A DNA stretch of 64,000 nucleotides, from assembly GCA_016186955.1 (NCBI GenBank), contig JACPKP010000007.1:1962-65961 (forward strand), written 5' to 3'. Position 1 is the first letter of the stretch, and the number at the start of each line of letters is the position of its first letter. The stretch is from Candidatus Daviesbacteria bacterium. GTDB lineage: Bacteria > Patescibacteriota > Microgenomatia > Daviesbacterales > UBA10151. The position numbers and the translations under genes were made by a program. Positions 17,101-32,821 of this stretch are shown here, one piece after another. The notes beneath the pieces are model-generated. The model made no database searches, had not been told where the DNA came from, and saw only the letters and a program-made list of their open reading frames with translations.

Positions 17101-17540
17101 GGAAAGCGCAAATGGGAGGCCAAAGGTTGGGGGAGATGGAGGTTTGGGCGCTTGAAGCATACGGCGCTGCAAATATATTACAGGAAATGTTGACTATCAA
17201 ATCTGATGATGTAGTCGGAAGGGCCAAAGCATTTGAGGCGATAGTCAAAGGGACAGAGATCCCGCAGGCTTTGATACCGGAGTCATTTAAGGTTTTGGGC
17301 AAAGAATTGCAGAGCCTGGCTGTATCGGTAGAGCCTCAGGGTGTGCAGATTGTCAGCGCTCCAGCTGTTGTGGGTTTGGATGATTCAGCTGCCGCAAGTG
17401 ATGATACCAAGCTAAAGGAAAAGAAAGAGTTGGAAGAGTTCAAAGAGGCGCTTGAAGTCACTGATGTTGGGGATGTTGCTGAATTGGAGAGTGAATCAAG
17501 CCCGATGGAGATTGTTGATGTTCCCAAAACATATGAATGA
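14151..17540 (+). CDS. rpoB: DNA-directed RNA polymerase subunit beta
   Basis: Full-length RpoB hallmarks ([25 protein letters not shown] etc.). The likely start is the ATG at 14151 rather than the ORF-track 14109. Confidence 0.95.
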
Positions 17541-20500
17541 CCTACTTGATTTTGAAAGCTTAAAAGTATCAATTGCCAGCCCTGAGGTAATCAGGGGGTG
17601 GTCTTTTGGTGAAGTTACAAAACCTGAGACTATCAATTACCGTACCTTAAAGGCTGAGAAAGATGGGCTTTTCTCGGAAAATATTTTTGGGCCTACCAAA
17701 GATTTTGAATGTTATTGCGGTAAGTACAAGAGGATCCGTTACAGGGGTGTAATCTGTGATAAGTGCGGGGTTGAGGTAACGCAGTCAAAGGTTAGGCGGG
17801 AGAGGATGGGTCATATCTCCCTTGCTACCCCTGTTGCACACATATGGTTTGTCAAAGGTGCTCCTTCCAAAATCTCACTGGTTTTGGACCTGACAATGAA
17901 AAACCTGGAGTCAGTGATATATTTTGCATCATATATGGTGGTGGAAATTGACAGTGAAGGGAAACAGCAAGCTTTAGAACATTTGGCTAGTCAACTCGCG
18001 GACAAGAAAGCGCTGACAGTCCAAAACCTGGACAGGGCTATTGGTGAGGTAGAGAAAAATCTTGAGCAAATCCTGAAGGAATTAAAAAAGAAACTGAAAG
18101 AGCATGAAAAATTTGAATTGGCTGCTTCTGAAGAAGAATTAAAGACCCGCCAGTTTGTTGCAAGCCTAAGGGATGGCAACCAAGTTGAGTTGGGCCAGTT
18201 GGAAGGTATATACAAGGTTGTTACTGATTTGACAAACAGCATTGTACCTCTCAGGCTTCTTTCTGAAGATGAGTATTATAAACTGCAGGAGTATGGCGTA
18301 GCTGATTTTCTCAAAGTGGGTATGGGCGCAGAGGTCCTTTTGGAGGTTTTACAAAGAATTGACCTTGATAAACTGGCTGCTGAATTGAGGATAGAAGTCC
18401 AAAAATCTTCAGGGCAACGCCATATTAAAGCTACAAAAAGGCTGCGTTTAGTTGAAGGGATGCGCAAATCTAAAATCAGCCCTGCATGGATGGTGTTGAC
18501 AGTTTTGCCTGTATTACCGCCTGACCTGCGGCCTATGGTGCAGCTCCCGGGGGGCAGGTTTGCAACAAGTGATTTAAATGACCTGTACAGACGGGTTATC
18601 AACAGGAATAACAGGTTAAAAAGGTTGATTGAGCTGGGCGCTCCCGAAATTATTTTAAGGAATGAAAAACGGATGCTGCAGGAGGCCGTTGATTCTTTGA
18701 TTGACACCAATACCAGGACAACCAGGAGGATTGGAGGCCACCAGTTGCGTTCCCTCTCTGATATGTTGCGCGGTAAACAAGGCAGGTTCAGGCAAAACTT
18801 ATTGGGTAAAAGGGTTGATTACTCCGGCAGGTCAGTTATTATTGTCGGGCCTAAACTTAAACTTCATCAGGTGGGTGTGCCAAAAGAGATGGCGCTTGAG
18901 GTGTTTAAACCGTTTGTTTTAAGGGAGTTGATCTCGCGCGGTCTGGCATCAAATGTGAAAGGTGCAAAAAATATCCTGGAATTTAGGCCGCCGGAAGTTT
19001 GGGATATCCTGGAAGAAGTTATTGAAAACCACCCGGTGCTCATTAACAGGGCCCCTACACTTCACAGGCTTGGGATACAGGCATTTTACCCGGTATTGAC
19101 AGACGGTGATGCAATCCAGATCCACCCGTGTATTTGTGCAGGGTTTAATGCAGATTTTGACGGGGATCAGATGGCCATACATGTGCCGTTATCTGAAAAA
19201 GCCAAAGCTGAAGCCAGGGAGCTGATGATGGCTAAAGAAAATATCTTAAAACCGGGTGACAGCTCGCCTGTCAATATGCCGAACAAAGAGATGGCGCTTG
19301 GTTGTTTCTACATAACTTCGATAGATAAAAAACTGGAGCCATCCGAAAAAATTTACTCCGAGCAGGAAGCGTTGCTGGCCTACCAGACCAATAAATTGCA
19401 GGCAAGAAGGCTGATAAAATGTTATATCCAGGACAAATTGTTAGAGACTACTGTCGGCAGGATTTTATTTAACAAATTTTTGCCCAAAGAGCTGCAATTT
19501 CTTAATGAAAACATATCGCAAGCCTGGATTGTCAAAATTATTATGAAAGCTTTCAAAACTTTTGAGAAATCTGAAATCGCCAAACTGATTGATGACATTA
19601 AAGATTTTGGTTTTTGGGGGGTAACTATTTCAGGACTATCGCTGGCTATTTCAGATAATAAAATTATCCCTGAAAAACCTAAGCTGATCGCTCAGGGGGA
19701 TCAAGAGATTGCGGAGATTGAAAATAACCTGGCAAAAGGACTCATTACAAATGAAGAAAGACGGGCCTTAGCCCAAGAGGTTTGGACTAGGATTGGTGAG
19801 GAGATAGTCAGGGGGACATTTGCCTCGATAGATGCTGATAGCCCGATCCAGATTATTATGCAGTCAGGGGGAGCCAGGGCTACTACTGCCCAAATTGCCC
19901 AGACCTCAGGCATGAGAGGGTTTTCGGTTGACCCAACCGGAAAGATTGTAGAGCTTCCTACGAAATCCAATTACAGGGAAGGGTTAGGTGTATTTGAATA
20001 CTTTACTTCCTGCAGGGGCGCCAGAAAAGGTGTTGCAGATAGGGCTATCAGGACTGCAGATGCAGGGTATTTGACCAGAAGACTGGTTGATGTTTCCCAC
20101 GATGTAATTATCAGGATCGAAGAATGCGGTACAGACCAGGGGATAAGTCTTGAAGTTTCAAAAGAGAATATCCCATCAAACAATTCAAGATTTTTAGGCA
20201 GGAAGACTCTAAACAAGGTAGTCGATCCCAAAACAAAGAAAACAATTATTGGAAGTGATTCCTACATTGAAGAGAATGAGGTTGTTGAGCTTTTTAAAAG
20301 CAATGTGGCAGAGGTGACTATCCGTTCTCCCCTGACATGCAAGGCTAAAATTGGACTTTGTTCAAACTGTTACGGGTTAGATCTATCAAGCAGGAAGCCG
20401 GTCCAGTTGGGGACTCCGGTTGGTGTAGTTGCAGCCCAAGCTATAGGTGAACCGGGCACCCAGTTGACGATGCGGACTTTTCATACCGGTGGAGTTGTCG

Positions 20501-21213
20501 GAGTGGATATAACCCAAGGATTGCCAAGGATAGAAGAGTTATTTGAAGCGAGAAGCCCCAAAGTTGCAAGCCCGGTTTCCGAGATCGCCGGAAAGATAAC
20601 TCTGGTTGATTCAGACCAGGGCAGGATTGTACGGGTGAGAACCACATCCAAGCCTCATGAAGAACGCGAATATAATATTCCCCCTTCAGCAGAGTTATTG
20701 GTTGAAGATGGTAATTTGGTAGCAGCCGGCAGCCCGCTGGCATCAGGGCATCTGGAAATTAATGAGGTTTTAAGAGTGAGGGGTTTGAGGGAGGCGCAAA
20801 GGTATATAGTGGGCCAGGCAAGGGAGGTGTATGAGTCGCAAGGGGTGCACATCCATGAGAAACACTTTGAGGTGATTGTACGCAAGATGTCTGACAAAGT
20901 TAGGATTGAATCCCAGGGTGATGCTGTGCTTTTGCCTGGAGAGATTGTAGATAGGAACAGGTTTGAGGATGAAAATACCAGGGTGCTGGCTGAAGGCGGG
21001 GAACCTGCTACAGCAGGGGTTATAATCTTGGGGATTACCAGGTCCTCGCTTCAGACAGAGAGTTTTCTTTCTGCAGCCTCATTTCAGGAAACCACTACTG
21101 TTTTGGCAGATGCTGCATCATCCGGTAAGGTGGACAAGTTGCTTGGGCTCAAAGAAAATGTTATCATTGGACGATTAATACCAACTAGCCCCGAACGGGC
21201 GAAGATGGAGTAA
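17533..21213 (+). CDS. rpoC: DNA-directed RNA polymerase subunit beta'
   Basis: Zn-finger [35 protein letters not shown] catalytic motif, trigger loop. The ATG at 17533 overlaps the rpoB stop (ATGAATGA). Confidence 0.95.
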
Positions 21214-21215
21214 AT

Positions 21216-21689
21216 ATGCCGACAATTAACCAATTAGTCAGAAAAGGGCGGAAAAGCAAGGCTAAGAAATTTAAAGCAACACTGCTGCGCCGTTCATATA
21301 ATGCTAAAGAGAGGAGATATACTTCCTCGCCAAATCCGCAAAAACGCGGGGTAGTTACTTTAGTGCGTACAATGACACCAAGAAAGCCAAATTCAGCCTT
21401 GCGTAAAGTTGCCAGAGTGAGGCTTTCAAACCGTGGGGAAGTCACAGCTTATATCCAGGGGATAGGGCATGATTTAGCTGAGCATGGGATTGTTTTGGTG
21501 CGGGGAGGCAGGGTTAAAGACCTTCCGGGTGTAAAATACCATTTGATCAGAGGGAAGCTTGACCTGGCAGGGGTTGCAGGCAGAAAAACATCAAGGAGCA
21601 AGTATGGTTCTAAAAAAGGCGGGGGTGGGGTAGCTGCGCCAAGAGCAGCAGCGCCTGCGCCGGCACCTGTAGCTGGAGGAGGAGCATAA
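21216..21689 (+). CDS. rpsL: 30S ribosomal protein S12 with Ala/Pro/Gly-rich C-terminal extension
   Basis: [12 protein letters not shown]...[13 protein letters not shown]; ~30 extra C-terminal residues. Confidence 0.9.
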
Positions 21690-21699
21690 GATTACAATT

Positions 21700-22173
21700 A
21701 TGAGATCAGGAAAAATTACAAAGAGAAAATTAGCGCCAGACCCGGTATATAATTCAAAACTTGTCACCCGTTTTATCAACAGGGTGATGTTTGACGGAAA
21801 AAAAACAGTTGCCCAAAACCTGGTGTACAAAGCTTTAGAACAAATTGAAAAAAGCGGCAAAAACCCGGTGCAGACCTTTGAGACAGCTATTGCTAATATC
21901 TCCCCCAGGATGGAAGTCAGGCCCAGAAGGGTGGGGGGAGCTTCCTACCAGGTGCCAACTGAGGTGCGGGGTGACAGGAGGGAAGCTTTGGCAATACGAT
22001 GGTTGATCACAGCCGCCAAATCCCGTTCCAACAAGGAATTCCACACTTTCTCGGAAAAATTGGCTGCAGAATTTTTGGCAGCTGCTGAAAACCAGGGTGC
22101 AGCCATTAAGAAAAAAGAAGATATTTCCAGGATGGCTGAAGCTAACAAAGCTTTCGCTCATTTCAGATGGTAA
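21700..22173 (+). CDS. rpsG: 30S ribosomal protein S7
   Basis: Typical S7 sequence; directly follows rpsL. Confidence 0.9.
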   Translation: MRSGKITKRKLAPDPVYNSKLVTRFINRVMFDGKKTVAQNLVYKALEQIEKSGKNPVQTFETAIANISPRMEVRPRRVGGASYQVPTEVRGDRREALAIRWLITAAKSRSNKEFHTFSEKLAAEFLAAAENQGAAIKKKEDISRMAEANKAFAHFRW

Positions 22174-22174
22174 T

Positions 22175-22366
22175 ATGAAAGAATTGACAAGAGATTTAAG
22201 CACGAGACAGGAAGCTATCAAAAACAATTTGAGTGATTTCAAATCTGATTATATGAATTTGCCTTTAAAGTGGAGAGTGGTGGGCACTGTTGCCTTTTTT
22301 GGATCAGCAATTGCAGCTGGAACTGGATTAGGGATTGCAGTAAGTATAGCCAAGTTATATTTTTAG
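22175..22366 (+). CDS. small hypothetical membrane protein (C-terminal TM)
   Basis: The ATG at 22175 immediately follows the rpsG stop. C-terminal VVGTVAFFGSAIAAGTGLGIAVSIA is hydrophobic. Confidence 0.3.
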   Translation: MKELTRDLSTRQEAIKNNLSDFKSDYMNLPLKWRVVGTVAFFGSAIAAGTGLGIAVSIAKLYF

Positions 22367-22376
22367 TTTTTTTTCA

Positions 22377-22401
22377 AATCCCGCCCCCGGGTAATCCTAG
22401 G
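22377..22401. repeat. X-repeat copy 0 (AATCCCGCCCCCGGGTAATCCTAGG)
   Basis: Related copies at 23724-23749 and 24431-24456. Confidence 0.5.
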
Positions 22402-22525
22402 CGCAACTTATGAAAGAACACCTACCAGACTTTAATCCTAAAACTGCTGTTTACATTGAAACAGGAGGCGATAGTGAAGTTTATCAAGTTGGGTTGGTGA
22501 TCTGATAATGTGATAAAATCTGGGT

Positions 22526-23383
22526 ATGGGTCCTGATGAAGAGACTGTGGAACCAGGGTTAGAAACAGAGGAATTGGCCCAAAAGATAAACCCCTTTTGG
22601 GAACAGCCCTATCAGTTGGCAAGAGCAGTTGCCAGAAGATGGAGAAAACCCGAGGCGAAAACAGAGATAGAACCTACTATTGCGTCTACTCACCAGGAAG
22701 ATATCCTTTCAACTAGAGATAAAAAAAACAAGCGGGAATTAGGAGCAGATAGCGCTAATGTTGTACTATTTGTTGAGCTTGAAGATGATGGCTCAGCAAT
22801 ATACAAACCCGTAAGTGGAGAGCAGCCTTACTTAAGACATGGTATTGAAGCAGGGACTTATTATCAAAGAGAACGGGCAGCATACCTAGTAGATAGGTTT
22901 TTAGGTCTCGGTTTAGTTCCACCAACCGTAATACGTGAATTAGATGGTGAGATTGGGAGTTTGCAGCAGTTTATTCCAGAAACAACGGGCAGTTGGGGTG
23001 TGGATCTTTCTCAACTACAAGAAGATTTATATCAACTTTGGGTTTTTGATTATATTATTTGGAATACAGATAGACATTCAGGTAATTTACTTTTTCAGGG
23101 TAATAAGCTTTTCGCAATCGATCATGGTCTGTCTTTTGGGAGTGAGTGTCGTATGTTCATGAGGCATTTTTATGACATTGCCGCTCCCAAACAACTGGTT
23201 GGTCTGCTGGAGCAATTTTTAAAAGATGACAAAAGCAAAAAAATTCTACAAGAACTACTTGAGGAGTTGCTCAGTGAAGATGAGGTAAAGGCTTGTGTGA
23301 GAAGGATTGAACATATCGGTTCTAAATTAATCAAAAATGGTATGATCAAACTTAATGAAGATAGCATTTTCAATCCTGAATAA
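22526..23383 (+). CDS. PI3K/PI4K-like atypical kinase-fold protein
   Basis: Catalytic-loop-like IWNTDRHSGNLLF (DRHxxN) and IDHGLSFG (DFG-equivalent). Upstream AIYKP beta-strand lysine and a conserved Glu in QRERAAYLVDRF. Confidence 0.45.
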   Translation: MGPDEETVEPGLETEELAQKINPFWEQPYQLARAVARRWRKPEAKTEIEPTIASTHQEDILSTRDKKNKRELGADSANVVLFVELEDDGSAIYKPVSGEQPYLRHGIEAGTYYQRERAAYLVDRFLGLGLVPPTVIRELDGEIGSLQQFIPETTGSWGVDLSQLQEDLYQLWVFDYIIWNTDRHSGNLLFQGNKLFAIDHGLSFGSECRMFMRHFYDIAAPKQLVGLLEQFLKDDKSKKILQELLEELLSEDEVKACVRRIEHIGSKLIKNGMIKLNEDSIFNPE

Positions 23384-23388
23384 CACAA

Positions 23389-23643
23389 ATGGCTTATGTA
23401 GAGATCTATAAATTAAATAATGATGGTTCGCAAAAGATTTTGGCTGTTTGCAGGCAGCTTGGGGAAGAGGTGGTTTGTGAAGGAGAGGAAAAGTTCATTG
23501 AATATTTAAATAAAGAGGGGATTAATGATTACAATTCCCCATCCCCGAAAAAATTATTCCCAAAAGACGGTAGGTTGTTTCTTGAACAATTAAAGTACAA
23601 TTTCAAATCAGGATACCTAAATGCCACTGATTTAAAAGAATGA
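23389..23643 (+). CDS. hypothetical protein
   Basis: ORF only; 84 aa; no recognisable motif. Confidence 0.3.
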   Translation: MAYVEIYKLNNDGSQKILAVCRQLGEEVVCEGEEKFIEYLNKEGINDYNSPSPKKLFPKDGRLFLEQLKYNFKSGYLNATDLKE

Positions 23644-23652
23644 ACCGCGTTA

Positions 23653-23719
23653 GGCACAAAAGGCGTCCCCTTTTGAGGCTAAATTAATTTATACCCCCTT
23701 GTTTTAACTGTAACTATTT
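23653..23719. repeat. Y-repeat copy 1: 67-nt exact duplicate of the 3' end of the regulator gene (24481..25785)
   Basis: Identical to 24457-24523. Its reverse complement encodes EIVTVKTRGYKLI*. Confidence 0.7.
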
Positions 23720-23723
23720 TTAA

Positions 23724-23749
23724 AATCCCACCCCCTGGGTGGTCCTGAG
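23724..23749. repeat. X-repeat copy 1 (variant, CCCACC-CCCT-GGGTGG hairpin)
   Basis: AAAATCCCACCCCCTGGGTGGTCCTGAG. Confidence 0.5.
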
Positions 23750-24449
23750 TATAGGTTTCCTTTCATCGAAAAGTTGCGGGCACAACAATTATAAGATATC
23801 ATTCTTGTTTATGGAGAGAATCAGTGTGCAGGAAGCAGGGTTAGAAGGTTTACCCAGGATTAGGGGACATCATCTAAATAAACTGAAAGAGCTCTATGTT
23901 TTTATGAATACTAAAAGGGAATCTTTATCCGAATCAGGATATCAAGGTTCTTTGTCAGGAGAAATGGAAGCTTTAATCAAATTTTTTATTCAGGAACATA
24001 GCAGCGATTTGTTGACATTTGTAGATCCTGCAACCCGTACTTTTGGTTTATCTCAAGAGTGGATGATGAGTTATATAAACGATACAATTGGAGGTATTGA
24101 AGCCGAGAAAGTTAAAATATACAATCAAAAAACATATGAAGCGATTGTAAAATATATTTCATATCCGGCAAGCCAACAAGTTCTATTGACAGTTACCCCG
24201 GATTTTATTTGCAGATTATGTTTAGTGGGAACACATTGTTTAAAAAGCTCAAAATTGATGCCACTTGATTATAGAGAAATCAGAGAATTTTCAAAGTTCC
24301 AAATAAACAGGAGAAGGGATATGCAAATTTATACGGAGGAATTTAAATTTAGCGATCGCCTGAAGCCATTAATCACTAAAGTAGTGTTAACCACCTTTGG
24401 AGATATTAGGTTTTACTTATCTTTTGGTGGAATCCCACCCCCGGGTTAG
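23739..24449 (+). CDS. hypothetical protein on a repeat-flanked cassette
   Basis: ORF bracketed by X/Y repeats. The true start may be MERISVQ at 23811. No recognisable domain. Confidence 0.4.
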   Translation: MVLSIGFLSSKSCGHNNYKISFLFMERISVQEAGLEGLPRIRGHHLNKLKELYVFMNTKRESLSESGYQGSLSGEMEALIKFFIQEHSSDLLTFVDPATRTFGLSQEWMMSYINDTIGGIEAEKVKIYNQKTYEAIVKYISYPASQQVLLTVTPDFICRLCLVGTHCLKSSKLMPLDYREIREFSKFQINRRRDMQIYTEEFKFSDRLKPLITKVVLTTFGDIRFYLSFGGIPPPG

Positions 24450-24523
24450 TCCTAGGCACAAAAGGCGTCCCCTTTTGAGGCTAAATTAATTTATACCCCC
24501 TTGTTTTAACTGTAACTATTTCA
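24431..24523. repeat. X-repeat copy 2 plus Y-repeat copy 2 (native 3' end of the regulator gene)
   Basis: AATCCCACCCCCGGGTTAGTCCTAGG followed by the 67-nt Y sequence. Confidence 0.7.
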
Positions 24524-25785
24524 TAAGAGCTGTTTTGTTGCTTCAGCTTACTCCGGACTCTTGCTACCAGCCTGTCTATTGCCCAATCGGAGACTCCCAA
24601 TTCCTCTTCTTCAGGCCAGACTGCTTCAATTATGGCTTCCCGCTCACATATCTGGTTTAAGTTATTTTGTAGACAAGTAAACAACAGATGTTCTTTTTTA
24701 CTGAGTTCCAACGGTGGCATTTCCAGCGGTTTGGCCCCATTTGTCTGTCTTGATTTGATGAAATTTTCAAAGATCGGGCTAAAAATCCGGGTTTTACCTT
24801 TTTCAGTAGCAACCAGGCCGGTATCCCAAAGGTATTTACTTGAAAGTTGCCCATCTTTTGAAATTTTTTCTTTGGAGACAATCTGAATCAGTGTATCTTG
24901 CTCTGTTTCATTTAAACTGTCCCAGAGTTCTTCGGATTGTAAAGCTATCCTTTCATCCTCTATCAAGGCCGGAAAAAGTTCAAAATTTTTGTTTAAAATT
25001 TTGATTTTTTCTGAGAGAGTAATCAAGGCGAGCAGCAGGTATTGGATATATCCGCCGGAAAACGCAAATAACTCTTCCTTAAATTTTTTGGGAAGGTGCA
25101 AGTTATACTTTCTGGTGTTAACTTTATAGATAGTTTCCAGATCTTTGGGCTCTGCTGTTTTAACATACATCTGGTATACGATTAGGGCGGGAGAGGCTTG
25201 GCTGAATGCCTTGGGTGCAAGCTGGTCTAAACTCCTAAAACTTGTCAAAACATAAGTTAACTGGTGGTTGGTTGCATCATACAGGCTTTCAAGGTTGGCA
25301 AAAAGCTCAGGCGTGACAGCATCTTTAATACGGTCAAAATGGATTAAAAACATTGTCGGGATAAAGCCTGCCTGTGTGATTTTTATCAAGCTTAACCTGA
25401 CACAATCAAATAATAAAAACAGGTCTTTTGATTGAATTGAATCCAAAAAAAGGTTCTCGACATATTTTTTAATTTTAGGTTCCAAATTTAAGCGCTCGCA
25501 GTTATCAACAATCCTTTTTAAAGTTAACATCCAAAATGGGAAAACCTCCCTTTCTACCAAATCATTTAGATCCACATGGATAAATAAATGTTTTTTTCTA
25601 TTTGGAATGTGTTTGTCTATCACCTTTTTATGGCTTAAGAAAAACCTTAAGAAATTGCTGATGCCAACCCGGCGCATACCGATCATAATGATTGTCTGGC
25701 GGTTTTTGAGATAATATCCTAAATTTTGGGAGATCTCTTTCCTGAAGGTTTTTGGGTAATACGATTCCAGGACCGTGTTTACCAT
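24481..25785 (-). CDS. transcriptional regulator: degenerate AAA/STAND-like NTPase domain fused to C-terminal OmpR/PhoB-type winged helix
   Basis: N-terminal IIMIGMRRVGISNFL resembles a Walker A with Lys replaced by Ile. Walker B-like LFIHVDLND. The C-terminus EAVWPEEE...IDRLVARVRSKL...IVTVKTRGYKLI is trans_reg_C-like. Confidence 0.6.
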   Translation of the reverse strand: MVNTVLESYYPKTFRKEISQNLGYYLKNRQTIIMIGMRRVGISNFLRFFLSHKKVIDKHIPNRKKHLFIHVDLNDLVEREVFPFWMLTLKRIVDNCERLNLEPKIKKYVENLFLDSIQSKDLFLLFDCVRLSLIKITQAGFIPTMFLIHFDRIKDAVTPELFANLESLYDATNHQLTYVLTSFRSLDQLAPKAFSQASPALIVYQMYVKTAEPKDLETIYKVNTRKYNLHLPKKFKEELFAFSGGYIQYLLLALITLSEKIKILNKNFELFPALIEDERIALQSEELWDSLNETEQDTLIQIVSKEKISKDGQLSSKYLWDTGLVATEKGKTRIFSPIFENFIKSRQTNGAKPLEMPPLELSKKEHLLFTCLQNNLNQICEREAIIEAVWPEEEELGVSDWAIDRLVARVRSKLKQQNSSYEIVTVKTRGYKLI

Positions 25786-25805
25786 GCAGGTTAATTTTAG
25801 AAGGA

Positions 25806-25862
25806 TTTGGTCAAATTAGCAAATAAATCAGGATTTTGTCAGAATGTGGTCAAAATAGCGTC
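25806..25862. promoter_or_regulatory. direct repeats GGTCAAAWTAGC(N) in the regulator gene's upstream region (possible wHTH operator)
   Basis: GGTCAAATTAGC (25808) and GGTCAAAATAGCG (25848), with a TTGTCAGAATG between them. Confidence 0.25.
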
Positions 25863-25898
25863 AAGCATATATTTTATCCTTGGCAATAAAATATATCA

Positions 25899-26177
25899 GT
25901 GACAGAAAAAGAATGGACGGATTACGGTTATGGTATCTCTCCGCTTTATGCTGCAGAAAACCCGGTGACTTATTTGCCTATTGCCCAGTTTTCTGCTCCT
26001 CTTGAATGTCCGCAGGGAATAATTGTAAAAGAAGCCCAACCGGAACAAAAAATTCAACCCAGACAAATTATTGTCGCACAGCCAAAAGTAGAGTACAGCA
26101 GCTATAAACGGCTACCCTTTTGGCGCAATTTAATAATAATTCTGCAAAAATGGGCGCCCCGTATAGGTTCCATTTGA
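25899..26177 (+). CDS. hypothetical protein
   Basis: ORF only; Gln/Pro-rich. Confidence 0.25.
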   Translation: MTEKEWTDYGYGISPLYAAENPVTYLPIAQFSAPLECPQGIIVKEAQPEQKIQPRQIIVAQPKVEYSSYKRLPFWRNLIIILQKWAPRIGSI

Positions 26178-26237
26178 CTTTTAAGTTCCAAGAGGTTAAT
26201 ATGTTATTCTGTCAAACGAAAAACCACGGAAGTTAAT

Positions 26238-26368
26238 CGTGGATGAAGTTTGCTTCGCCGACAGGCGAATCTCGCCGAAGGCGAGCAGGAAGAGAAACTA
26301 CGGGCGAAGCGAAGCGGAGTCCGTAGAGGCTCATTCTAAAGCACCCCTCTTCAGGGGGCTATTTTTTG
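26238..26368 (+). ncRNA. structured leader/possible small RNA: nested GC stems ending in an intrinsic-terminator-like hairpin plus T6
   Basis: GCTTCGCC...GGCGAAGC long-range pairing, CTCGCC-GAA-GGCGAG and CTACGG...CCGTAG stems, then CCCCTCTTCAGGGGG followed by TTTTTT (26343-26368). Confidence 0.3.
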
Positions 26369-26379
26369 AAATCACACCT

Positions 26380-26628
26380 ATGGATCAGTTAAAAAAACAA
26401 AAGCTTGAAATGTGGCAAAAAAAACTTGAAGGGCTTCAAAAAGAGTTCAAGGAGATTATGGTGCGCAAAGGGGAAGCTGCAGCTGACGGTGACCTTTCAG
26501 AAAATGCAGCATACAAACAGGCTGTGGAGGAGGCTGATATTTGCCTGGTCAGGATCAGTGAAATTAAAAAAATTATAGCTAATTTGGAAGGACCCGCCTC
26601 CGCCAAGGCTCCGGCGGGCAAGGGATAA
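26380..26628 (+). CDS. stand-alone GreA/GreB N-terminal coiled-coil domain protein
   Basis: GDLSENAAYKQA signature of the Gre-factor N-terminal domain, with two Asp/Glu near the coiled-coil tip. No FKBP-like C-domain; 82 aa. Confidence 0.55.
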   Translation: MDQLKKQKLEMWQKKLEGLQKEFKEIMVRKGEAAADGDLSENAAYKQAVEEADICLVRISEIKKIIANLEGPASAKAPAGKG

Positions 26629-26632
26629 TAGA

Positions 26633-28801
26633 ATGGCTGTTACAAAGACTAAGAGAGATTACCCCCTTGATAGGATACGTAACATAGGCATCATTGCCCA
26701 TATTGATGCCGGGAAGACCACCACAACAGAGCGGATCTTATTTTATACCGGTAAAACTTATAAAATAGGTAATATTGATGAAGGCACTACCACAACTGAT
26801 TGGATGGAACAGGAAAAGGAACGTGGTATTACAATAGTTTCTGCTGCTATAACCGCTTCCTGGACTGCCAAGTCAGGACCTTTTCAAGACCAGGAGATGA
26901 GGATTAATTTAATTGATACCCCCGGGCATGTGGATTTTACAGTGGAGGTAGAGCGGTCCTTGCGGGTTTTGGACGGAGGGGTGATTGTTTTGGATGCAGC
27001 CTCTGGTGTGCAGTCCCAGACCGAGACTGTCTGGAGGCAGGCCAATAAATACCATGTTCCTCTGATTGCATTTGCCAACAAGATGGATGTGGTTGGGGCT
27101 GATTTTTTGGGCACAATCCAGTCAGCCAGAGATAGATTAGGGGCAAACGCTATCGCCTATAACCTGCCGATTGGTGCGGAAACCAGTTTTAAAGGGGTTG
27201 TGGATTTGTTGGGTAATGATGAGAAGGGTGCTTTCGCGATTGTTTGGGAGCAAAGTGGTTCTGATTTTGATCCCAGTGGTTCAAAATTTAACATAACAGA
27301 TATTCCAGAAGATATGAAAATTGCAGTTGAGGAGCACAGAAATAAATTGATTGAAGAGATTTGTGCTACGGATGAAGTTTTATTGGAACAGTTTCTTAAT
27401 GGTAAGAAGATTGCTGTTAATGATTTGAAGTTAGCTTTGAGAAAAGCAGTAATTGCTGAAAAAATTGTCCCGGTTATGGCAGGTTCTTCACTTCGCAATA
27501 AAGGGGTGCAACCAATGCTTGATAATGTGGTTAATTTTTTGCCTTCCCCCCAGGATTTGCCTGAGATTAAAGGGCTTGACCCTAAAACCCAAGAGGAAAA
27601 GATTTTTCAGAATGTAAAAGATGCCCCTTTGGGCGCTTTGGCTTTTAAAATCCAGGTTGACCCTCATGTTGGGAGGCTCACTTATGTTAGGGTTTATTCT
27701 GGGATTTTAAAATCAGGTTCATATCTTTACAACTCAACAAAAGATGTAAAAGAGCGGGTAGGGAGGGTGCTTTTAATGCACGCCAATGATAGGGAGGAGA
27801 TTGATGAAGCTTTTGCAGGGGAAATTATAGCAGTAGTGGGGTTGAAAGATACTGTGACTGGAGATACGCTTTGTGATGATTCAAACCCGATTGTTTTGGA
27901 ATCCATTACTTTTGCAGAACCTGTGATCTCTCTTGCTATTGAACCCAAAACTAAATCAGACCAGGAAAAACTGGCTTATTCTTTGCAAAGACTGGGGGAA
28001 GAAGACCCAACATTTCGGGTAAAATCTAACCCTGAGACAGGACAGACTATTATCTCCGGTATGGGAGAGCTCCATCTGGAGATTATTGTGGACAGGATGA
28101 AAAGGGAGTTTAAGGTGGAGGCGAATATTGGAGAGCCTCAGGTTGCATACCGGGAAACTATCCAAAAAGAAGCAAGGGGTGAGGGTAAGTACATCAGGCA
28201 GACTGGTGGCAGAGGCCAATACGGACATTGCTTGCTTAGGATTGAACCTCTTCCCAGGGGCCAGGGACGGGAATTTGTCTCAGAAGTTGTGGGTGGGGCA
28301 ATACCAAGGGAGTTTATTCCGGCTATCGAAAAAGGGGTTATTGAAAAAGAAGACACCGGAATGTTGGCCGGTTTTCCGGTAACGGATATCAAAGTTGCGG
28401 TTTATGACGGGTCATATCATGATGTTGATTCATCTGAGATTGCATTTAAAATTGCCGGATCCTTAGGGCTTTCCGAGGCTGCCAAAGAGGCGGATATGAT
28501 ACTTTTGGAGCCTATTATGAAGGTGGAAGTGACAACGCCTGAGGAATTTATGGGAGATCTGATTGGGGATTTATCTTCAAAACGGGCACAGATCCTGGGT
28601 ACTGAGAAAAGGCATAATTCAAGCGTGATTAATGCTTTGGTGCCTCTTGCAGAACTTGGAGGTTATATAACTGCCATAAGGTCAATGTCACAAGGTCGTG
28701 CTTCAGCCTACATTGAGCCCTCCCATTATGAGAGTGTGCCAAGTAACATTACCCAAAAAATTGTTGCATCTTCAGGGTTCACTGGCAGAGTTGAGCATTA
28801 A
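26633..28801 (+). CDS. fusA: elongation factor G
   Basis: AHIDAGKTTTTERIL, DTPGHVDF, NKMD; full length. Confidence 0.95.
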   Translation: MAVTKTKRDYPLDRIRNIGIIAHIDAGKTTTTERILFYTGKTYKIGNIDEGTTTTDWMEQEKERGITIVSAAITASWTAKSGPFQDQEMRINLIDTPGHVDFTVEVERSLRVLDGGVIVLDAASGVQSQTETVWRQANKYHVPLIAFANKMDVVGADFLGTIQSARDRLGANAIAYNLPIGAETSFKGVVDLLGNDEKGAFAIVWEQSGSDFDPSGSKFNITDIPEDMKIAVEEHRNKLIEEICATDEVLLEQFLNGKKIAVNDLKLALRKAVIAEKIVPVMAGSSLRNKGVQPMLDNVVNFLPSPQDLPEIKGLDPKTQEEKIFQNVKDAPLGALAFKIQVDPHVGRLTYVRVYSGILKSGSYLYNSTKDVKERVGRVLLMHANDREEIDEAFAGEIIAVVGLKDTVTGDTLCDDSNPIVLESITFAEPVISLAIEPKTKSDQEKLAYSLQRLGEEDPTFRVKSNPETGQTIISGMGELHLEIIVDRMKREFKVEANIGEPQVAYRETIQKEARGEGKYIRQTGGRGQYGHCLLRIEPLPRGQGREFVSEVVGGAIPREFIPAIEKGVIEKEDTGMLAGFPVTDIKVAVYDGSYHDVDSSEIAFKIAGSLGLSEAAKEADMILLEPIMKVEVTTPEEFMGDLIGDLSSKRAQILGTEKRHNSSVINALVPLAELGGYITAIRSMSQGRASAYIEPSHYESVPSNITQKIVASSGFTGRVEH

Positions 28802-28900
28802 ATTTGCATTTTTTTGTAAGTTGTATTAGTATATATATACTTAAATCTCCCGCAAGGACCAAAAGTCATTTGCGGGATTTTTTGTGCTATACTCATTTGC

Positions 28901-29455
28901 ATGAAACAAGCCCGCTGCGTGATTATTATTGATGGGAGTAACTTCTACTTCAAGTTAAAAGATTTGGATTTACATTATGAACTGCAATTTGATTTCTCTG
29001 GTTTTGCTAAATTGCTGGCTGGTAAGAATAAAATTGCGAGGTGTGTGTACTATGTGGGTGCGGTAAGAACAGATGGTACAAAACATACCCAAAAGTTGTT
29101 TAATAAGCAGCAGAAACTTTTTGCAAATCTCAAGAAACATAATTTTCAATATTCGCTTGGATATTTGTTGAAATCTGGCGGAAAAATGCATGAAAAAGGA
29201 GTAGATGTTAATATGGCTGTTGATATAGTTAAAGGTGCGCTAAAAGATGAGTTTGAACATTTTATTATAGTCAGCTCGGACACGGATTTGTTACCAGCTA
29301 TATTAGTAGTCAAAGAAGCGGGCAAAACTATTGAATATATAGGATTTTCTCATCAAGCAAGTTTGGCGATGGTAGCTAATTGTTCCGAATCCAGGTTATT
29401 GAAAAAAGAGGATTTACTACCTTTTGTAAGTCGCAAAATATCACCCAAAAAATAG
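28901..29455 (+). CDS. NYN-domain (LabA/PIN-like) nuclease-fold protein
   Basis: IIIDGSNF and FIIVSSDTDL motifs typical of the NYN/DUF88 PIN-like fold. Confidence 0.65.
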   Translation: MKQARCVIIIDGSNFYFKLKDLDLHYELQFDFSGFAKLLAGKNKIARCVYYVGAVRTDGTKHTQKLFNKQQKLFANLKKHNFQYSLGYLLKSGGKMHEKGVDVNMAVDIVKGALKDEFEHFIIVSSDTDLLPAILVVKEAGKTIEYIGFSHQASLAMVANCSESRLLKKEDLLPFVSRKISPKK

Positions 29456-29494
29456 TGGCATCCTCCGGGTTTACAGGCAGAGTAGAGCATTAAT
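29444..29494 (+). repeat. 51-nt synonymous-codon duplicate of the fusA 3' terminus (encodes TQKIVASSGFTGRVEH*)
   Basis: 9 of 51 nt differ from 28751-28801, all at synonymous third positions; out of frame with the NYN gene. Confidence 0.8.
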
Positions 29495-29877
29495 TATTTG
29501 AAATATTGCCTTTTACGATAAATTGCCCAGAACCAGAGTGTGCTTACGATGATAAGACTTAACCAAGCAGGTATATAAGAATAGGGCCAATATGCACCTG
29601 AAGAATTTTTGAAAAAAATAACCAAATAATCAAGAAATGATATTATCCAGCTAATTATTGATAAATAAATCCCCCACTTTTGAAATTTCCAAAGTCCGTA
29701 TATTAAGACAATTGCCACTAAGTTTACTAAGATCCTGTAGGGAAAATACCAAATAGGGTTGAAATTTTCAAGGTTTATTTGGTTAAATTTGAAGAAAATT
29801 AAGTAAAGGGAATATAAAACGGATAAAGAAAAAATAAATAGAACAATTGTTAAAAATTTGCCTCGCTCTTTTTTCAT
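29494..29877 (-). CDS. integral membrane protein (4 predicted TM helices)
   Basis: Highly hydrophobic and Trp/Tyr-rich, with TM segments throughout. Confidence 0.5.
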   Translation of the reverse strand: MKKERGKFLTIVLFIFSLSVLYSLYLIFFKFNQINLENFNPIWYFPYRILVNLVAIVLIYGLWKFQKWGIYLSIISWIISFLDYLVIFFKNSSGAYWPYSYIPAWLSLIIVSTLWFWAIYRKRQYFK

Positions 29878-29978
29878 ATAAACTAATTATAATATTAAAT
29901 TACACTTTTTACAAAGATTGTTTAAGAAAACGTTTTTCTTAAACATTACCCCTCTGATGTGGCAGGACAATTTTAATA

Positions 29979-30038
29979 TCACACCTCCGAGGTGTGATAA
30001 AAATAGCTGTTGACAAATTGGATACAAGCTCATAGAAT
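29979..30038 (+). promoter_or_regulatory. 19-bp palindrome TCACACCTCCGAGGTGTGA followed by sigma70 promoter TTGACA-17-TAGAAT
   Basis: Second copy of the palindrome. The -10 lies only ~8 nt before the ATG at 30046, suggesting a near-leaderless transcript. Confidence 0.45.
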
Positions 30039-30045
30039 CACTGGC

Positions 30046-30780
30046 ATGGAGAGCCAAGGTGCAGTGAAGAAAATTTCAAGAGTTAGAAAAACCATCATTG
30101 ATACCAAACCAGAACCTGTATCACAAATAGACTCCATACCCACTATTCAACTTCACTCAAAAAAAGATATTTTCAATAACCTCAATGAAGAAATAAAAAA
30201 ATTAAAAGATCAATTTGATATTTTGGAAAAAGAAATTACTGAAACAAGACAAGAGTGGGTTAAGGAACAAAGAGTTCATCAACAGGAGATGGAGGAAAGA
30301 GAACGTCAAGAGAATCTTGGAAGAAAACATGAGCAAGAGCTGTACCAGTATGAAACAAATTTGAATCATAAAAAAGCGGAAGATGAATTTAGTGACAAAA
30401 AAACTAAGTGGGAAAAGGAGCTTTTAGAGCGTAAAGATGAGCTTGCAAAAGATAAACAGGAATTAGCGGAATTAAGAAGCAAGGTAGCAGGTTTTGAACA
30501 ACAGCTTGTCAAAGCAGCAGATGGGGCATCTGAAGCGGCTAAAAAAGAGCTGGAATCTAGGTTTGAGAATGAAAAAAGATTATATGAGCAGCAAGTCAAG
30601 GCGGAAAAAGATGTACTCAATTTAAGGCTCAGCAATTTGACTGCTGATAATAGTAGGCAAGCTCATGAGATAGAAACTCTCAAAAAAGCTTTGGATGAAG
30701 CTACAAGACAGGTGAAGGAGATAGCGGTAAAAGTGATTGAATCAAACAGCGGTGTAATTAAAACCTCCTCTGCAGAATAG
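30046..30780 (+). CDS. coiled-coil protein (Glu/Lys-rich)
   Basis: Heptad-like EELKKL periodicity throughout. The ORF-track start at 30010 lies inside the promoter; the ATG at 30046 is preferred. Confidence 0.45.
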   Translation: MESQGAVKKISRVRKTIIDTKPEPVSQIDSIPTIQLHSKKDIFNNLNEEIKKLKDQFDILEKEITETRQEWVKEQRVHQQEMEERERQENLGRKHEQELYQYETNLNHKKAEDEFSDKKTKWEKELLERKDELAKDKQELAELRSKVAGFEQQLVKAADGASEAAKKELESRFENEKRLYEQQVKAEKDVLNLRLSNLTADNSRQAHEIETLKKALDEATRQVKEIAVKVIESNSGVIKTSSAE

Positions 30781-30834
30781 TTACTTTTAATGTGATCGTT
30801 TAAATATCCGTAGTATGGTAAAATAAATTTACGT

Positions 30835-31191
30835 ATGAATGAACAAGAGGTTAGTTTAGACCAACTAAAACAGATAATACGGGAAAAAGGCATAAATCCC
30901 GCCCCTGGCGCTAAACCCGGCAGTTTTACAGCATATGGAATCGTTTTAGGAAACCATGGATTAGCAGCTACGGAAGTTTTTTATGAAATTTATAAAAGAC
31001 TTAAACCTATCTTTGGAGAAGCGCTGCTGGATGGTTTTTCAACTTCTGCCGCGCATGCGGAACTGGGGAGATTTGAGCCTAAATTAGCGCCTTACTCCGA
31101 TGGAGAAACAGCCTGGCTTGAGGCTCAGAAATCAGAGCTGACTGTTTATTTAAAAAGCACACTGAAGCGGAGGAAACAGGTAGGATTGTAA
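30835..31191 (+). CDS. hypothetical protein
   Basis: ORF only; 118 aa. Confidence 0.35.
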   Translation: MNEQEVSLDQLKQIIREKGINPAPGAKPGSFTAYGIVLGNHGLAATEVFYEIYKRLKPIFGEALLDGFSTSAAHAELGRFEPKLAPYSDGETAWLEAQKSELTVYLKSTLKRRKQVGL

Positions 31192-31205
31192 GTGGCCGAG
31201 CCAAT

Positions 31206-32291
31206 ATGGTTGAGAATAAACCCCAAAAATTATGGTTGTACGATCAAACTATTGCAGGTGAAGGTTTGAGCCAAATTGTCCAAGATCTTCTGAAAGATGT
31301 CCCAAGTATCGGGCAGCCAAATATCTTTCCATTGGAGTGGCATGGTGATGCCCATGGAAAATTAGCAAAGCTTTATGAAACAGCAAAAGAACGTGCTTGG
31401 AATCCGGCTCAGGCGATTGATTGGAAAAAGTTGGATCCCAAAGACTTTACAAGAGAACAACGGTTGGGGGTAATGTATTGGTATTCAGTTTTGGCGAATT
31501 TCGACGGTTCGGGGCCTCCGGTTTTTGCTAAAGCAATGATAAAATCTTATGAAACACATGAACCTAATGAGCTTAGAAATGCATTTTTTTCAATAGCCCG
31601 GGATGAAGTAAACCATGAAGAGGTTTGTTACCGGACAGTTTCCAGGCTTTGGTCTCAAACCCCGACAGAATGGGACCCTCAAAATGACCTAGAAGCTTTA
31701 GCCTTGAGAAACATCCGTTGGCTTTATTATAACGGCGGTAGATATTGGAAAGGTTATTCCAAGGCTTTGGAAGAAAAATATCCGATGAGCGTACTTTTTT
31801 CTTCATTTATGATGGGAGAGGTTGCGGCCACAACCCTTTTTCACAACATGAGTAAGGCAGCCAAACATCCTGTTTTTGCCCAGGGGCTTAAAAAAGTTGG
31901 GCAGGATGAAGCTAGGCATATGGCAATTTGCCTGGCTGCGTTGGAGCATGAATATATGAAACTGACAGAAGAAGATAAACAGATGATTACTAAGCAGCTT
32001 CGGGCCGGGTTTGTATTTCTTTCCATGATTTTGTATGAACCGCCTGATGAATTTTGGAAGCTGCCCCCGGAATTTTTGGAGGTTCATAGAAAATTAGAAC
32101 AGTTAGCAAGGGAAGCAGGTTTGGGAGTGGCAACCTTAAGCGAAAAGAAACAAGTTTGGCAGGAGGCAATGCTTAAAGTAAAAACAGTAGTAAACTCCTA
32201 TGGAGTGGAATTTCCAGCCATGCCTGAAGTAGGTATCACCGGAAAGGAGGTTGTAAATATCAGCATGGAAGATATAATTCCTGTATTCTAA
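31206..32291 (+). CDS. ferritin-like diiron-carboxylate oxygenase superfamily protein
   Basis: Two E...ExxH pairs (E-THE...DEVNH and GEVAA...DEARH) spaced as in diiron enzymes of the R2/AurF/desaturase type. Confidence 0.5.
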   Translation: MVENKPQKLWLYDQTIAGEGLSQIVQDLLKDVPSIGQPNIFPLEWHGDAHGKLAKLYETAKERAWNPAQAIDWKKLDPKDFTREQRLGVMYWYSVLANFDGSGPPVFAKAMIKSYETHEPNELRNAFFSIARDEVNHEEVCYRTVSRLWSQTPTEWDPQNDLEALALRNIRWLYYNGGRYWKGYSKALEEKYPMSVLFSSFMMGEVAATTLFHNMSKAAKHPVFAQGLKKVGQDEARHMAICLAALEHEYMKLTEEDKQMITKQLRAGFVFLSMILYEPPDEFWKLPPEFLEVHRKLEQLAREAGLGVATLSEKKQVWQEAMLKVKTVVNSYGVEFPAMPEVGITGKEVVNISMEDIIPVF

Positions 32292-32292
32292 T

Positions 32293-32778
32293 ATGGAAAG
32301 AATGGTTGGAAAAGCAGTCAGAACCTTAGATGACAAAACAACTGTTTTGAACTTTGACAGTATAAAGAGAGGCGACAGGTTTGTGATGGAGCAGGAAGTT
32401 ACAAGGGAAAAGGTGATGCTTTTTGCACAGGCTTCCGGTGATTTCAGTCTTTTACACTCTGATCCTCAATATGCATTAAATACCCGTTTTGGCAAGGTTA
32501 TTGCCCATGGAATGCTGACAGGGGGTTTTATTTCTGCAGCGCTTGCGGGTTTAGGTAAAGACGCAATGACTGCAGTCTATCTGGAGCAGTTTTTAAAATT
32601 CCACAGGCCGGTTGTAGAAGGGGATATTTTAAGGGTTTATTTAAAAATCACTTGTAAAAATAACACAGACAAAAGCCTTTGTTTGACGACAGATTGTTAC
32701 AACAGAAGAGATCGATTGGTAGTCAGCGGTAGGGCAAAAATCCGTTTGGATCCATACCCATATCCTCAAGCTGCCTGA
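32293..32778 (+). CDS. MaoC-like (R)-specific enoyl-CoA hydratase/dehydratase (hotdog fold)
   Basis: ASGDFSLLHSDPQYA...GKVIAHGML motif. Its start overlaps the stop of the diiron gene. Confidence 0.7.
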   Translation: MERMVGKAVRTLDDKTTVLNFDSIKRGDRFVMEQEVTREKVMLFAQASGDFSLLHSDPQYALNTRFGKVIAHGMLTGGFISAALAGLGKDAMTAVYLEQFLKFHRPVVEGDILRVYLKITCKNNTDKSLCLTTDCYNRRDRLVVSGRAKIRLDPYPYPQAA

Positions 32779-32821
32779 AAATTCAGGATGATCGGGATCA
32801 CGCAAAATTTCAAACTAACTA

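Follow-up and report, generated by a model that had tools for sequence, protein, structure and literature searches.

A GreA-type coiled-coil gene paired with fusA beside a variable slot in the str region of a Candidatus Daviesbacteria genome

In the canonical str operon (rpsL-rpsG-fusA-tuf), the genes for ribosomal protein S7 (rpsG) and elongation factor G (EF-G; fusA) are adjacent. In a metagenome-assembled genome (MAG) of Candidatus Daviesbacteria, which belongs to the Candidate Phyla Radiation (CPR), the two genes lie 4.46 kb apart, within a stretch of 64,000 nucleotides (nt) of contig JACPKP010000007.1 that was analysed as a whole and that we call the window. Here, we show by comparison with the corresponding loci of relatives that the gene just upstream of fusA, which encodes the N-terminal coiled coil of GreA alone and which we call greN, forms with fusA a conserved, tightly coupled pair behind a conserved, covarying leader, and that the interval upstream of this leader is a slot in which genes are present or absent from one relative to the next. 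The reading that we favour, with a probability of about 0.7, is that a conserved greN-fusA operon lies beside a permissive slot, and that the str region consists of the separate units rpsL-rpsG, greN-fusA and tuf, whose boundaries tolerate insertions. The interval is a patchwork of unrelated accessory genes at a transcription-unit boundary, not one functional island.

The split of the str operon between rpsG and fusA, which an earlier reading of the bare sequence (hereafter the original prediction) had pointed out, is real. From the stop of rpsG (22173) to the start of fusA (26633) there are 4459 nt, including one minus-strand gene, as against a median of ~33 nt in 78 non-CPR loci, 77 of which keep the two genes less than 360 nt apart; given this control median, the gap is exceptional among bacteria generally. 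The control derives from a scan of genome contigs for S7, which yielded 79 non-CPR loci besides a single CPR relative (L001), the former being reused for the rpsG-fusA distance. The window keeps the canonical order rpoB-rpoC-rpsL-rpsG...fusA...tuf-rpsJ, and rpoB-rpoC-rpsL-rpsG is collinear in relatives as well. It departs from the canonical operon in the conserved greN before fusA, in units with separate promoter-like elements, and in a fusA-tuf gap that is variable in this clade (92-5329 nt in 29 relatives, 4190 nt in the window). Every feature that the original prediction had listed for the 4.4-kb interval was found again among the open reading frames (ORFs), Pfam domains, repeats and predicted folds, and its calls of a kinase, a winged helix-turn-helix pseudo-ATPase, a GreA N-terminal protein, a leader with a terminator and a repeat-flanked cassette are correct. 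What does not hold is the way in which it joined them, as described below.

The greN-fusA pair and its leader

The greN protein is matched by the Pfam family GreA_GreB_N (PF03449; 3e-11, 43.8 bits against a cutoff of 24.5) and by TIGR01462 (4e-11), the latter in its N-terminal half only. No trace was found of the C-terminal globular domain (PF01272): the matches of the Pfam and NCBIfam GreA models cover the N-terminal half only and stay below the cutoffs, and the protein ends 12 residues past the second helix. Translation from the ATG at 26380 gives 82 amino acids (aa), the same protein as HYW46_04125 at NCBI, which is encoded on a 69.7-kb contig of a Candidatus Daviesbacteria MAG. A GTG-initiated form of 129 aa was rejected, as it reads through the leader and as the NCBI protein and all homologues are short; in over-long representatives of the family, the extensions are unrelated and represent translated leader. 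A word-indexed search yielded 20 homologues, all of 68-84 aa, and an exhaustive profile search yielded 18 clusters at E < 1e-10, again all short, beyond which ordinary GreA proteins of ~150 aa follow. The ratio of nonsynonymous to synonymous substitutions (dN/dS) between two near relatives is 0.058. The gene had originally been described as a truncated GreA-like factor. Its identity as a GreA N-terminal domain stands, but "truncated" does not, as we are dealing with a conserved family of 68-84 aa under purifying selection and not with a decayed gene.

For the comparison of loci, 80 metagenomic loci were fetched with an alignment of short greN proteins (A1), and the proteins of the window were mapped on to them. 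Wherever both genes are visible (73 of 73 loci), greN lies directly upstream of fusA, with a median spacer of 1 nt (range -8 to 518) and many overlaps of 1 nt; seven further matches are full-length GreA genes (148-161 aa) that lie away from fusA. The Gre factor had been taken for part of the island's cargo; it is instead always found with fusA, whatever else the locus holds. The best explanation is that greN-fusA is an ancestral, translationally coupled two-gene operon of a Daviesbacteria-like CPR clade, and that greN was not imported. In the literature searched, we found no description of this clade-wide pairing of greN with EF-G, nor any paper that links GreA to Patescibacteria or CPR.

Two observations concern the junction of the pair. 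At the 3' end of greN in the window, a GC-rich palindromic segment of 26 nt, CCCGCCTCCGCCAAGGCTCCGGCGGG (26593-26618), adds the tail GPASAKAPAGKG; the segment is near-identical in the distant loci L081, L082 and L083 (L081 10217-10242) and absent from the closer L179 and L001, and it resembles a short hairpin element that was inserted just 5' of the fusA start. In the close relative L085, the gene after greN (354-2333) encodes an EF-G homologue of 659 aa, for which tblastn gives 76% identity and the precomputed Pfam data show no match. It is followed by toxin-antitoxin (TA) genes and an IS200-type transposase; this fusA may be shortened or misassembled.

The leader of greN shows the same order of elements in 64 distinct relatives: TTGACT, 16-18 nt, TA(A/T/G)nAT, 7-13 nt, a GC-rich hairpin and a T-run of 4-8. 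The hairpin usually has the form (G)CCUCCC-loop-GGGAGG(C), and the T-run ends 4-28 nt 5' of the ATG in most loci. A covariance model (R1) matches 65 loci (32-83 bits), once each and always 5' of greN, and its best match in the whole window, at 25.1 bits, is the site at 26174-26202. This promoter-like element, conserved in at least 64 distinct relatives, supports the earlier suggestion that fusA may have a promoter of its own here. RNAalifold found no pairs in the raw MAFFT alignment of the leaders, because the stems are misaligned in it; once the hairpin had been supplied as the structure of the covariance model and the leaders had been realigned, 91% of the cells were paired and six of the seven pairs were changed on both sides, a result as high as which was reached by 0 of 500 shuffles, while slid controls were paired in 37-70%. 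A CCTCC...GGAGG-TTTT hairpin occurs 50 times in 669 kb, and 47 of these occurrences lie upstream of greN. L122, L130 and L133, in which only 20-26 nt separate rpsG from greN, are without the leader element. In the window, an insertion of ~130 nt splits the promoter-like site from the conserved hairpin, and the leaders of L179 and L085 are short and canonical. The insertion has no Rfam match, and BLAST finds no similar DNA among the loci examined; it could add a regulatory layer of the antiterminator type in the lineage of the window.

What might the hairpin and U-run do? Among gene families preceded by attenuators, greA/rnk rank seventh (PMC2965389); two-thirds of the transcripts terminate in the leader of Escherichia coli greA (PMC2836576), and the autoregulation of GreA requires the same leader (PMC6829880). 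Similar to the E. coli greA leader with GraL, the greN leader has a promoter and then a terminator-like hairpin with a U-run within tens of nt, just 5' of the gre gene, and such a predicted intrinsic terminator between promoter and gre start is conserved in 64-65 relatives. The likeness is one of layout, as the two leaders have no sequence or Rfam similarity: neither the window leader (E <= 1) nor the canonical leader (E <= 5) matches the greA/rnk leader RNA families of Rfam. In addition, the greN leader differs in being much shorter (~30 nt) in most loci, without room for an antiterminator, and in presumably controlling fusA as well, and with a similar layout before tuf it may not be Gre-specific.

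A bifunctional boundary element is therefore an alternative that we take seriously, though we hold it to be less likely than not: the hairpin and U-run would terminate rpsL-rpsG with any cargo and would serve as a protective 5' stem-loop, rather than as a Gre-type attenuator. The layout may indeed be a general boundary or 5' untranslated region (UTR) design in the clade, because tuf, with a different stem sequence, and some of the inserted genes are preceded by similar elements. The hairpin also begins 7-13 nt past the -10 element, that is at the extreme 5' end of the mRNA, and 95% of the gap genes, which lie upstream of it, are co-directional. However, the U-run is nearly invariant, which a stabiliser would not need, and the CCUCC/GGAGG stem is specific to greN, which suggests more than generic termination. 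Leader terminators are moreover used by greA genes elsewhere (PMC2836576, PMC2965389), and the two functions are not mutually exclusive.

The tuf gene (32992-34176) is preceded by a conserved promoter-like site of its own, CTTGCAT-N17-TATATT, after which come a CCAGC...GCTGG hairpin and a T-run (window 32823-32884). A strict pattern detects this element before tuf in 17 of 28 relatives, and inspection by eye reveals it in most of the others. Second, weaker copies of the greN-type promoter and hairpin are present in the rpsG-greN gap or right after rpsG in L138 (1228-1299), L134 (1150-1224) and L126 (7325-7396). The inserted genes of such relatives stand between the two copies, and the doubling may hint at a route of cargo insertion or expression. 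As a compact unit of ~65 nt, the promoter-hairpin-U-run leader might serve as a defined part for expressing or attenuating genes in CPR bacteria, a group with hardly any known regulatory elements.

A variable slot between rpsG and greN

The distance from the rpsG stop to the greN start ranges from 20 to 3590 nt in 49 loci, with a median of 921 nt, and is largest in the window (4206 nt). The 87 ORFs in these gaps span 53 Pfam families, and 83 of them are co-directional with rpsG. They encode His_Phos_1 proteins (11 ORFs), GNATs, a Trp repressor, Phd/ParE and HigB-like TA proteins, HD, NUDIX, EamA and Wzy_C proteins, and also an IS200 transposase and GIY-YIG. The window fills its slot with other genes (Table 1). 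Homologues of its small transmembrane (TM) ORF, its kinase, orf84 and ORF236 are absent from all 80 greN loci, and the regulator occurs in one of them (L101), in the same place and the same orientation.

Table 1. Features of the str region in the window
Feature	Position	Strand	Basis
rpoC	17452-21213	+	ORF listing, Pfam scan
rpsL, in the upstream transcription unit with rpsG	21216-21689	+	ORF
rpsG, in the upstream transcription unit with rpsL	21700-22173	+	Pfam Ribosomal_S7, 7e-60
63-aa ORF (TM ORF), hydrophobic C-terminal segment; small membrane protein, lineage-specific	22175-22366	+	ORF
Motif copy A	22377-22393	+	Repeat family D2
PI3_PI4_kinase-like protein, first gene of a two-gene module	22526-23383	+	Pfam PF00454
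orf84, 84 aa, kinase partner	23389-23643	+	Identity to ORFs 3' of kinase homologues
ORF236 insertion unit, window-specific	23651-24521	.	Exact 69-nt direct repeats, family D1
ORF236	23811-24449 (start 23739 or 23811)	+	ORF
Regulator, 434 aa, C-terminal Trans_reg_C	24481-25785	-	Pfam
ORF92, 92 aa, divergent from the regulator	25899-26177	+	ORF
Promoter-like site TTGACT-17-TAATAT of the greN-fusA unit	26174-26202	+	Consensus match
Leader insertion of ~130 nt, three GC-rich hairpins, window-specific	26203-26339	+	Fold z = -3.7
Conserved terminator-like leader hairpin; T-run	26340-26360; 26362-26367	+	-12 kcal/mol
greN, GreA_GreB_N only, 82 aa	26380-26628	+	PF03449
fusA (EF-G), 4 nt past the greN stop	26633-28801	+	All EF-G domains

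Close relatives outside that set show how the slot was filled. In L178, rpsG is followed after 72 nt by the minus-strand regulator, and the kinase module is absent. L179, the closest relative, has the 3' end of the kinase, orf85, the regulator, an ORF of ~97 aa, the canonical leader, greN and fusA, and is without the ORF236 unit and the leader insertion; its regulator is 90% identical in nucleotide sequence to that of L178. The polymorphism among close relatives is piecemeal rather than all-or-none. The cargo of the window represents independent modules added stepwise, and the accessory island is in itself ordinary variable cargo. The regulator, with ORF92, would have come first, the TM ORF and the kinase-orf84 module second, and the 802-nt ORF236 unit with its 69-nt duplication third, while the ~130-nt insertion into the greN leader would be a further change in the lineage of the window.

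The kinase is recognised by PF00454 (6e-11, 43.1 bits against a cutoff of 27.1), whereas with TIGR03843 (9e-30) it scores 103.8 bits against an equivalog cutoff of 172.4, which makes it a relative and not a member of that SCO1664 family. Its AlphaFold2 model has a mean predicted local distance difference test score (pLDDT) of 87 and finds its best PDB matches in type II PI4-kinases (PI4KII alpha and beta, E 4e-10). The protein carries the catalytic-loop motif D-R-H-x-x-N and the motif IDHG, and residues K94, D182, R183, N187 and D199 do not vary among 38 homologues. The window kinase therefore shares the PF00454 core and the PI4KII fold, but eukaryotic PI4Ks are much larger, and the SCO1664 family is set apart by the cutoff and by the partner of ~85 aa that is always present downstream of the window-type kinase. 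A reading as a HipA-like toxin, based on a sub-threshold HipA_2 match, was rejected: the fold and the stronger matches are PI4KII- and SCO1664-like, and the small partner lies downstream. Most of the 613 homologues belong to other CPR lineages (Minisyncoccia, Yanofskybacteria, Sungbacteria), and identity does not exceed 52%. In every context examined the kinase is followed by the ~85-aa partner, for instance in one Minisyncoccia genome, where the two lie just upstream of tuf, and in another genome, where RNase Y and HU flank them; orf84 is 55-57% identical to the ORF directly 3' of the kinase homologues in L167, L168 and L169, and 75% identical to that of L179. Kinase and partner together form a two-gene module that is widespread in CPR (window 22526-23643, L167 6001-7100, L169 6001-7117).

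A gene for a histidine phosphatase of the His_Phos_1 family recurs in the slot of relatives (e.g. L081 9388-9918), preceded in L081-L083 by an ORF of 93 aa. In Actinobacteria, kinases of the SCO1664 type neighbour a gene of the histidine-phosphatase family; the SCO1664-like kinase and His_Phos_1 never share a locus here.

The regulator has a C-terminal Trans_reg_C domain (3.5e-16) and a weak AAA_14 match (0.0056), and the PhoB-like NCBIfam match is confined to residues 358-433. With OmpR/PhoB factors it shares the C-terminal winged helix, but in place of a receiver it has a degenerate P-loop-like N-terminal domain of ~350 aa; a receiver domain with a phospho-acceptor Asp was not found, the matches being limited to the Trans_reg_C part. 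Judged by its predicted domains, the regulator is not a two-component response regulator. The Walker-A lysine is invariably replaced by Ile (G36...R-V-G-I42) in 21 homologues, which show a mean column identity of 68%. The protein is among the better conserved ones in Microgenomates, with 1547 homologues of ~430 aa that are more than 50% identical across the group. In genomes of the Levybacteria type, the gene resides in the neighbourhood dnaA-rnpA-yidC-jag-RNaseH-DUF4012-[regulator]-aaRS (aaRS, aminoacyl-tRNA synthetase), and a third genome has it in another context (loci compared, L171-L177). ORF92 is 40% identical to the ORF at the same position in L179 and has no family match in Pfam or NCBIfam.

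These neighbourhoods bear on the proposal that the whole 4.4 kb is a coherent signalling and transcription module, in which the kinase would modify the regulator, the Gre factor or both to modulate RNA polymerase (RNAP), and whose site between rpoBC/rpsLG and fusA would be no accident. It is true that kinase, regulator and greN are intact with conserved catalytic or DNA-binding residues, that the regulator adjoins greN in the window, L101, L178 and L179, with the same position and orientation, and that L179 also has the 3' end of the kinase and orf85 upstream of the regulator. Nonetheless, the relatives largely have these genes dispersed. The kinase module, the TM ORF and ORF236 are missing from the greN loci compared, and L178 is without the kinase module despite the close similarity of its regulator to that of L179. 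The kinase homologues and their 85-aa ORF are found in unrelated neighbourhoods without regulator or greN, the regulator family usually sits near dnaA and yidC or elsewhere in other Microgenomates, and greN-fusA is present with gaps down to 20 nt. We consider a coherent module, as proposed in the original prediction, to be highly improbable.

The ORF236 unit is bounded by exact 69-nt direct repeats (23651-23719 and 24453-24521, 100% identity) around a segment of 733 nt, which makes a unit of 802 nt. The repeat consists of the 28-nt 3' UTR of the regulator and its last 41 coding nt. In L179, which has no such unit, the stop of orf85 lies 20 nt from that of the regulator. ORF236 has no family match in Pfam, NCBIfam or PADLOC, and a BLAST search with the 69-nt repeat, a 31-nt motif, the ORF236 segment and the leader insertion against all DNA examined gave no copies outside the window except in L166. 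In addition to the long repeats, a short motif AATCCCRCCCCC(T)GGGT..TCCTRGG is present after the TM ORF (copy A) and at the bounds of the ORF236 insert (copy B, 23724-23740; copy C, 24431-24447). A search with the AATCCCRCCCCC motif gives five matches at up to 3 mismatches, which 0 of 100 shuffles equal. The motif contains the palindromes CCCGGG and CCTAGG and may be a recombination or boundary site.

Could the interval instead have entered a previously intact rpsG-fusA junction all at once, as a single horizontally acquired island or mobile element? Its GC content is below that of the flanking genes (0.36-0.42 against 0.44-0.48), it holds direct repeats and a repeated short motif, the nearest kinase homologues come from other CPR lineages, and the gaps of relatives contain TA modules, an IS200-type transposase and GIY-YIG. 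However, GC content in the window varies from 0.31 to 0.47 anyway, and no integrase, transposase or tRNA lies within the interval. The 69-nt repeats bracket the 733-nt ORF236 segment and not the ends of the island, the near relatives show intermediate states (regulator only; regulator with kinase module), and greN and its leader are ancestral. We regard a one-event origin as very unlikely.

An assembly artefact, either a chimeric contig or a mis-joined 69-nt repeat unit, is barely credible. The source is a MAG, and assemblers break at exact repeats of 69 nt, as in L166, a contig that ends 30 nt into the repeat. Yet L166, which belongs to an independent Logan assembly (run SRR12113430), reproduces window positions 20918-23680 (99.86% identity) and runs across the rpsG junction at 22.2 kb; the 63-aa hydrophobic-tailed ORF is called as a gene there too. 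L179 is collinear with the window over orf84, regulator, ORF92, leader, greN and the start of fusA. Together, L166, L179 and the universal greN-fusA adjacency contradict a chimeric join at 22.2 or 26.6 kb, the fault that the original prediction had named as its possible undoing. Further, the right-hand repeat copy completes an intact, conserved C-terminus of the regulator, and a mis-join at a repeat creates no second copy of it.

How could such a junction take up so much DNA? In the arrangement that we favour, an operon beside a permissive slot, the greN-fusA unit would normally have its own sigma70-type promoter, followed by a short GC-rich hairpin and a U-run. With a promoter and hairpin of their own, greN-fusA and tuf would be separate units, and the classical str operon would therefore be cut into insulated parts. 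The slot from the rpsG stop to the greN promoter would accept genes without disturbing either neighbour, and the rpsG-greN boundary would be an insertion hotspot because it is transcriptionally insulated. Cargo genes would ride on read-through from rpsL-rpsG as far as the hairpin, which, with its U-run, would end this read-through and attenuate the transcription of greN-fusA, as in known greA leaders. If units are separately promoted and their seams collect cargo, a break in one of the most conserved gene junctions of bacteria need carry no apparent cost. A "universal" operon may thus contain a gap that is no functional island, which matters for annotation and for inference from synteny.

Several points weigh against this account. 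The loci of the relatives were selected through greN itself, so that counts such as 73 of 73 cover greN-bearing loci. The promoters and terminators are consensus-type predictions, and a scan of the region shows no excess of them over shuffles; the alignment behind the covariation figures was fitted to the model structure. A terminator-like hairpin directly after a unit's own promoter is paradoxical, and the occurrence of promoter, hairpin and U-run before tuf points to a general feature of 5' UTRs, which would stabilise the mRNA or terminate upstream transcription, rather than to attenuation specific to Gre. As the regulator stands beside greN in four loci, a regulatory link between the two is possible in this sub-lineage. 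Finally, the window of 64 kb holds no full-length GreA, and because greN is missing the RNAP-binding domain, its action on RNAP stands as a prediction.

A possible Gre-type role for greN

The greN protein shares with GreA and GreB the N-terminal antiparallel coiled coil and the acidic tip motif, and full-length GreA proteins (~150 aa) are its nearest sequence relatives outside the family. The tip, GDL[S/R]ENAAY, is invariant in the greN family, with D38 and E41 invariant in 20-21 members, and greN aligns with residues 28-69 of E. coli GreA, including D41/E44, its GDLSENAAY standing opposite GDLKENAEY. In GreA and GreB, two acidic residues at the tip coordinate the catalytic Mg2+. The AlphaFold2 model of greN is a helical hairpin (helices 3-34 and 43-70, pLDDT 86.8) with GreA (1grj) as its top PDB match at a root-mean-square deviation of 1.1 A, and Gfh1 and GreB structures are also among the matches; the fold is simple, the Foldseek E-values are weak (0.2), and unrelated hairpins score similarly. 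The differences are those of size and setting: GreA and GreB have ~158 aa and a C-terminal globular domain, which the 68-84-aa greN proteins are without across the family, and greN has its place in the str region, translationally coupled to fusA. From the sequence we infer that greN may act in the secondary channel of RNAP as a minimal Gre factor.

Such an action would have to do without an anchor. The C-terminal domain of Gre factors is regarded as the part that binds RNAP, with the coiled coil extending to the active site (PMC4598747). Gfh1, Rnk, DksA and Rv3788 are likewise small proteins whose coiled coil gains access to the active site of RNAP by way of the secondary channel (PMC4598747), but they keep a globular or zinc-binding anchoring domain, of which greN has none; the coiled coil of Rnk is shorter (PMC4598747), whereas the greN model is long-helixed and keeps the GreA tip motif. 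Possibly, expression at the level of EF-G may offset the missing anchoring domain and a weak intrinsic affinity. An anchorless, natural Gre N-terminal domain that is conserved and locked to fusA offers a test of how far function resides in the coiled coil.

The strict coupling to fusA and the absence of the C-terminal RNAP-binding domain could also mean that the coiled coil was recruited to translation, for example by binding to EF-G or the ribosome, and is not an RNAP factor at all. Helical hairpins are generic interaction modules, and the weak E-values of the fold search would fit such a role. On the other hand, it is difficult to see why the tip with its two acidic residues would be invariant if greN worked away from the RNAP active site, genuine GreA proteins are its closest relatives in sequence, and the upstream hairpin with its U-run resembles known greA leaders (PMC2965389). 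A purely translational role seems to us distinctly improbable.

A bolder version of the RNAP reading goes further, and we offer it as speculation that is on the whole unlikely to be right. A free-standing coiled coil of ~75 aa would be the working, and possibly the only, Gre-type factor of the clade, produced at a constant ratio to EF-G by a dedicated promoter-attenuator unit, and its recruitment would depend on an abundance like that of EF-G (mass action) or on the translating ribosome or EF-G. If true, this would represent a new minimal class of secondary-channel factor, and the rescue of backtracked RNAP would be genetically tied to translation elongation. In any case, the greN-fusA pair may connect the rescue of RNAP genetically with the elongation of translation in organisms whose genomes are minimal.

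Other features of the window

The gap between fusA and tuf (28802-32991, 4190 nt) is a second accessory gap, which contains an NYN-domain protein, a minus-strand membrane protein, two ORFs without assignment, a diiron protein (AurF/rubrerythrin-like) and a MaoC dehydratase. At the other end of the region, the 63-aa ORF after rpsG has no match in Pfam, NCBIfam or PADLOC and no homologue among the 80 greN loci. A comparison of the island proteins with PADLOC gave no convincing match to a defence system, and the reading of the interval as a defence island was dropped on that ground. At gathering thresholds, an Rfam search of the whole window returned tRNA-Pro alone, the one tRNA in the window. 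A search for the exact EF-G product of the window gave no record. The S12 protein encoded by rpsL has 157 aa and ends in a tail rich in Ala, Pro and Gly that is shared with relatives. Directly 5' of rpoB (9171-14012) lies the gene for a 1613-aa protein of secreted type with subtilase S8, FG-GAP repeats and Big_7, which holds the place of rplJ-rplL, the usual genes upstream of rpoB.

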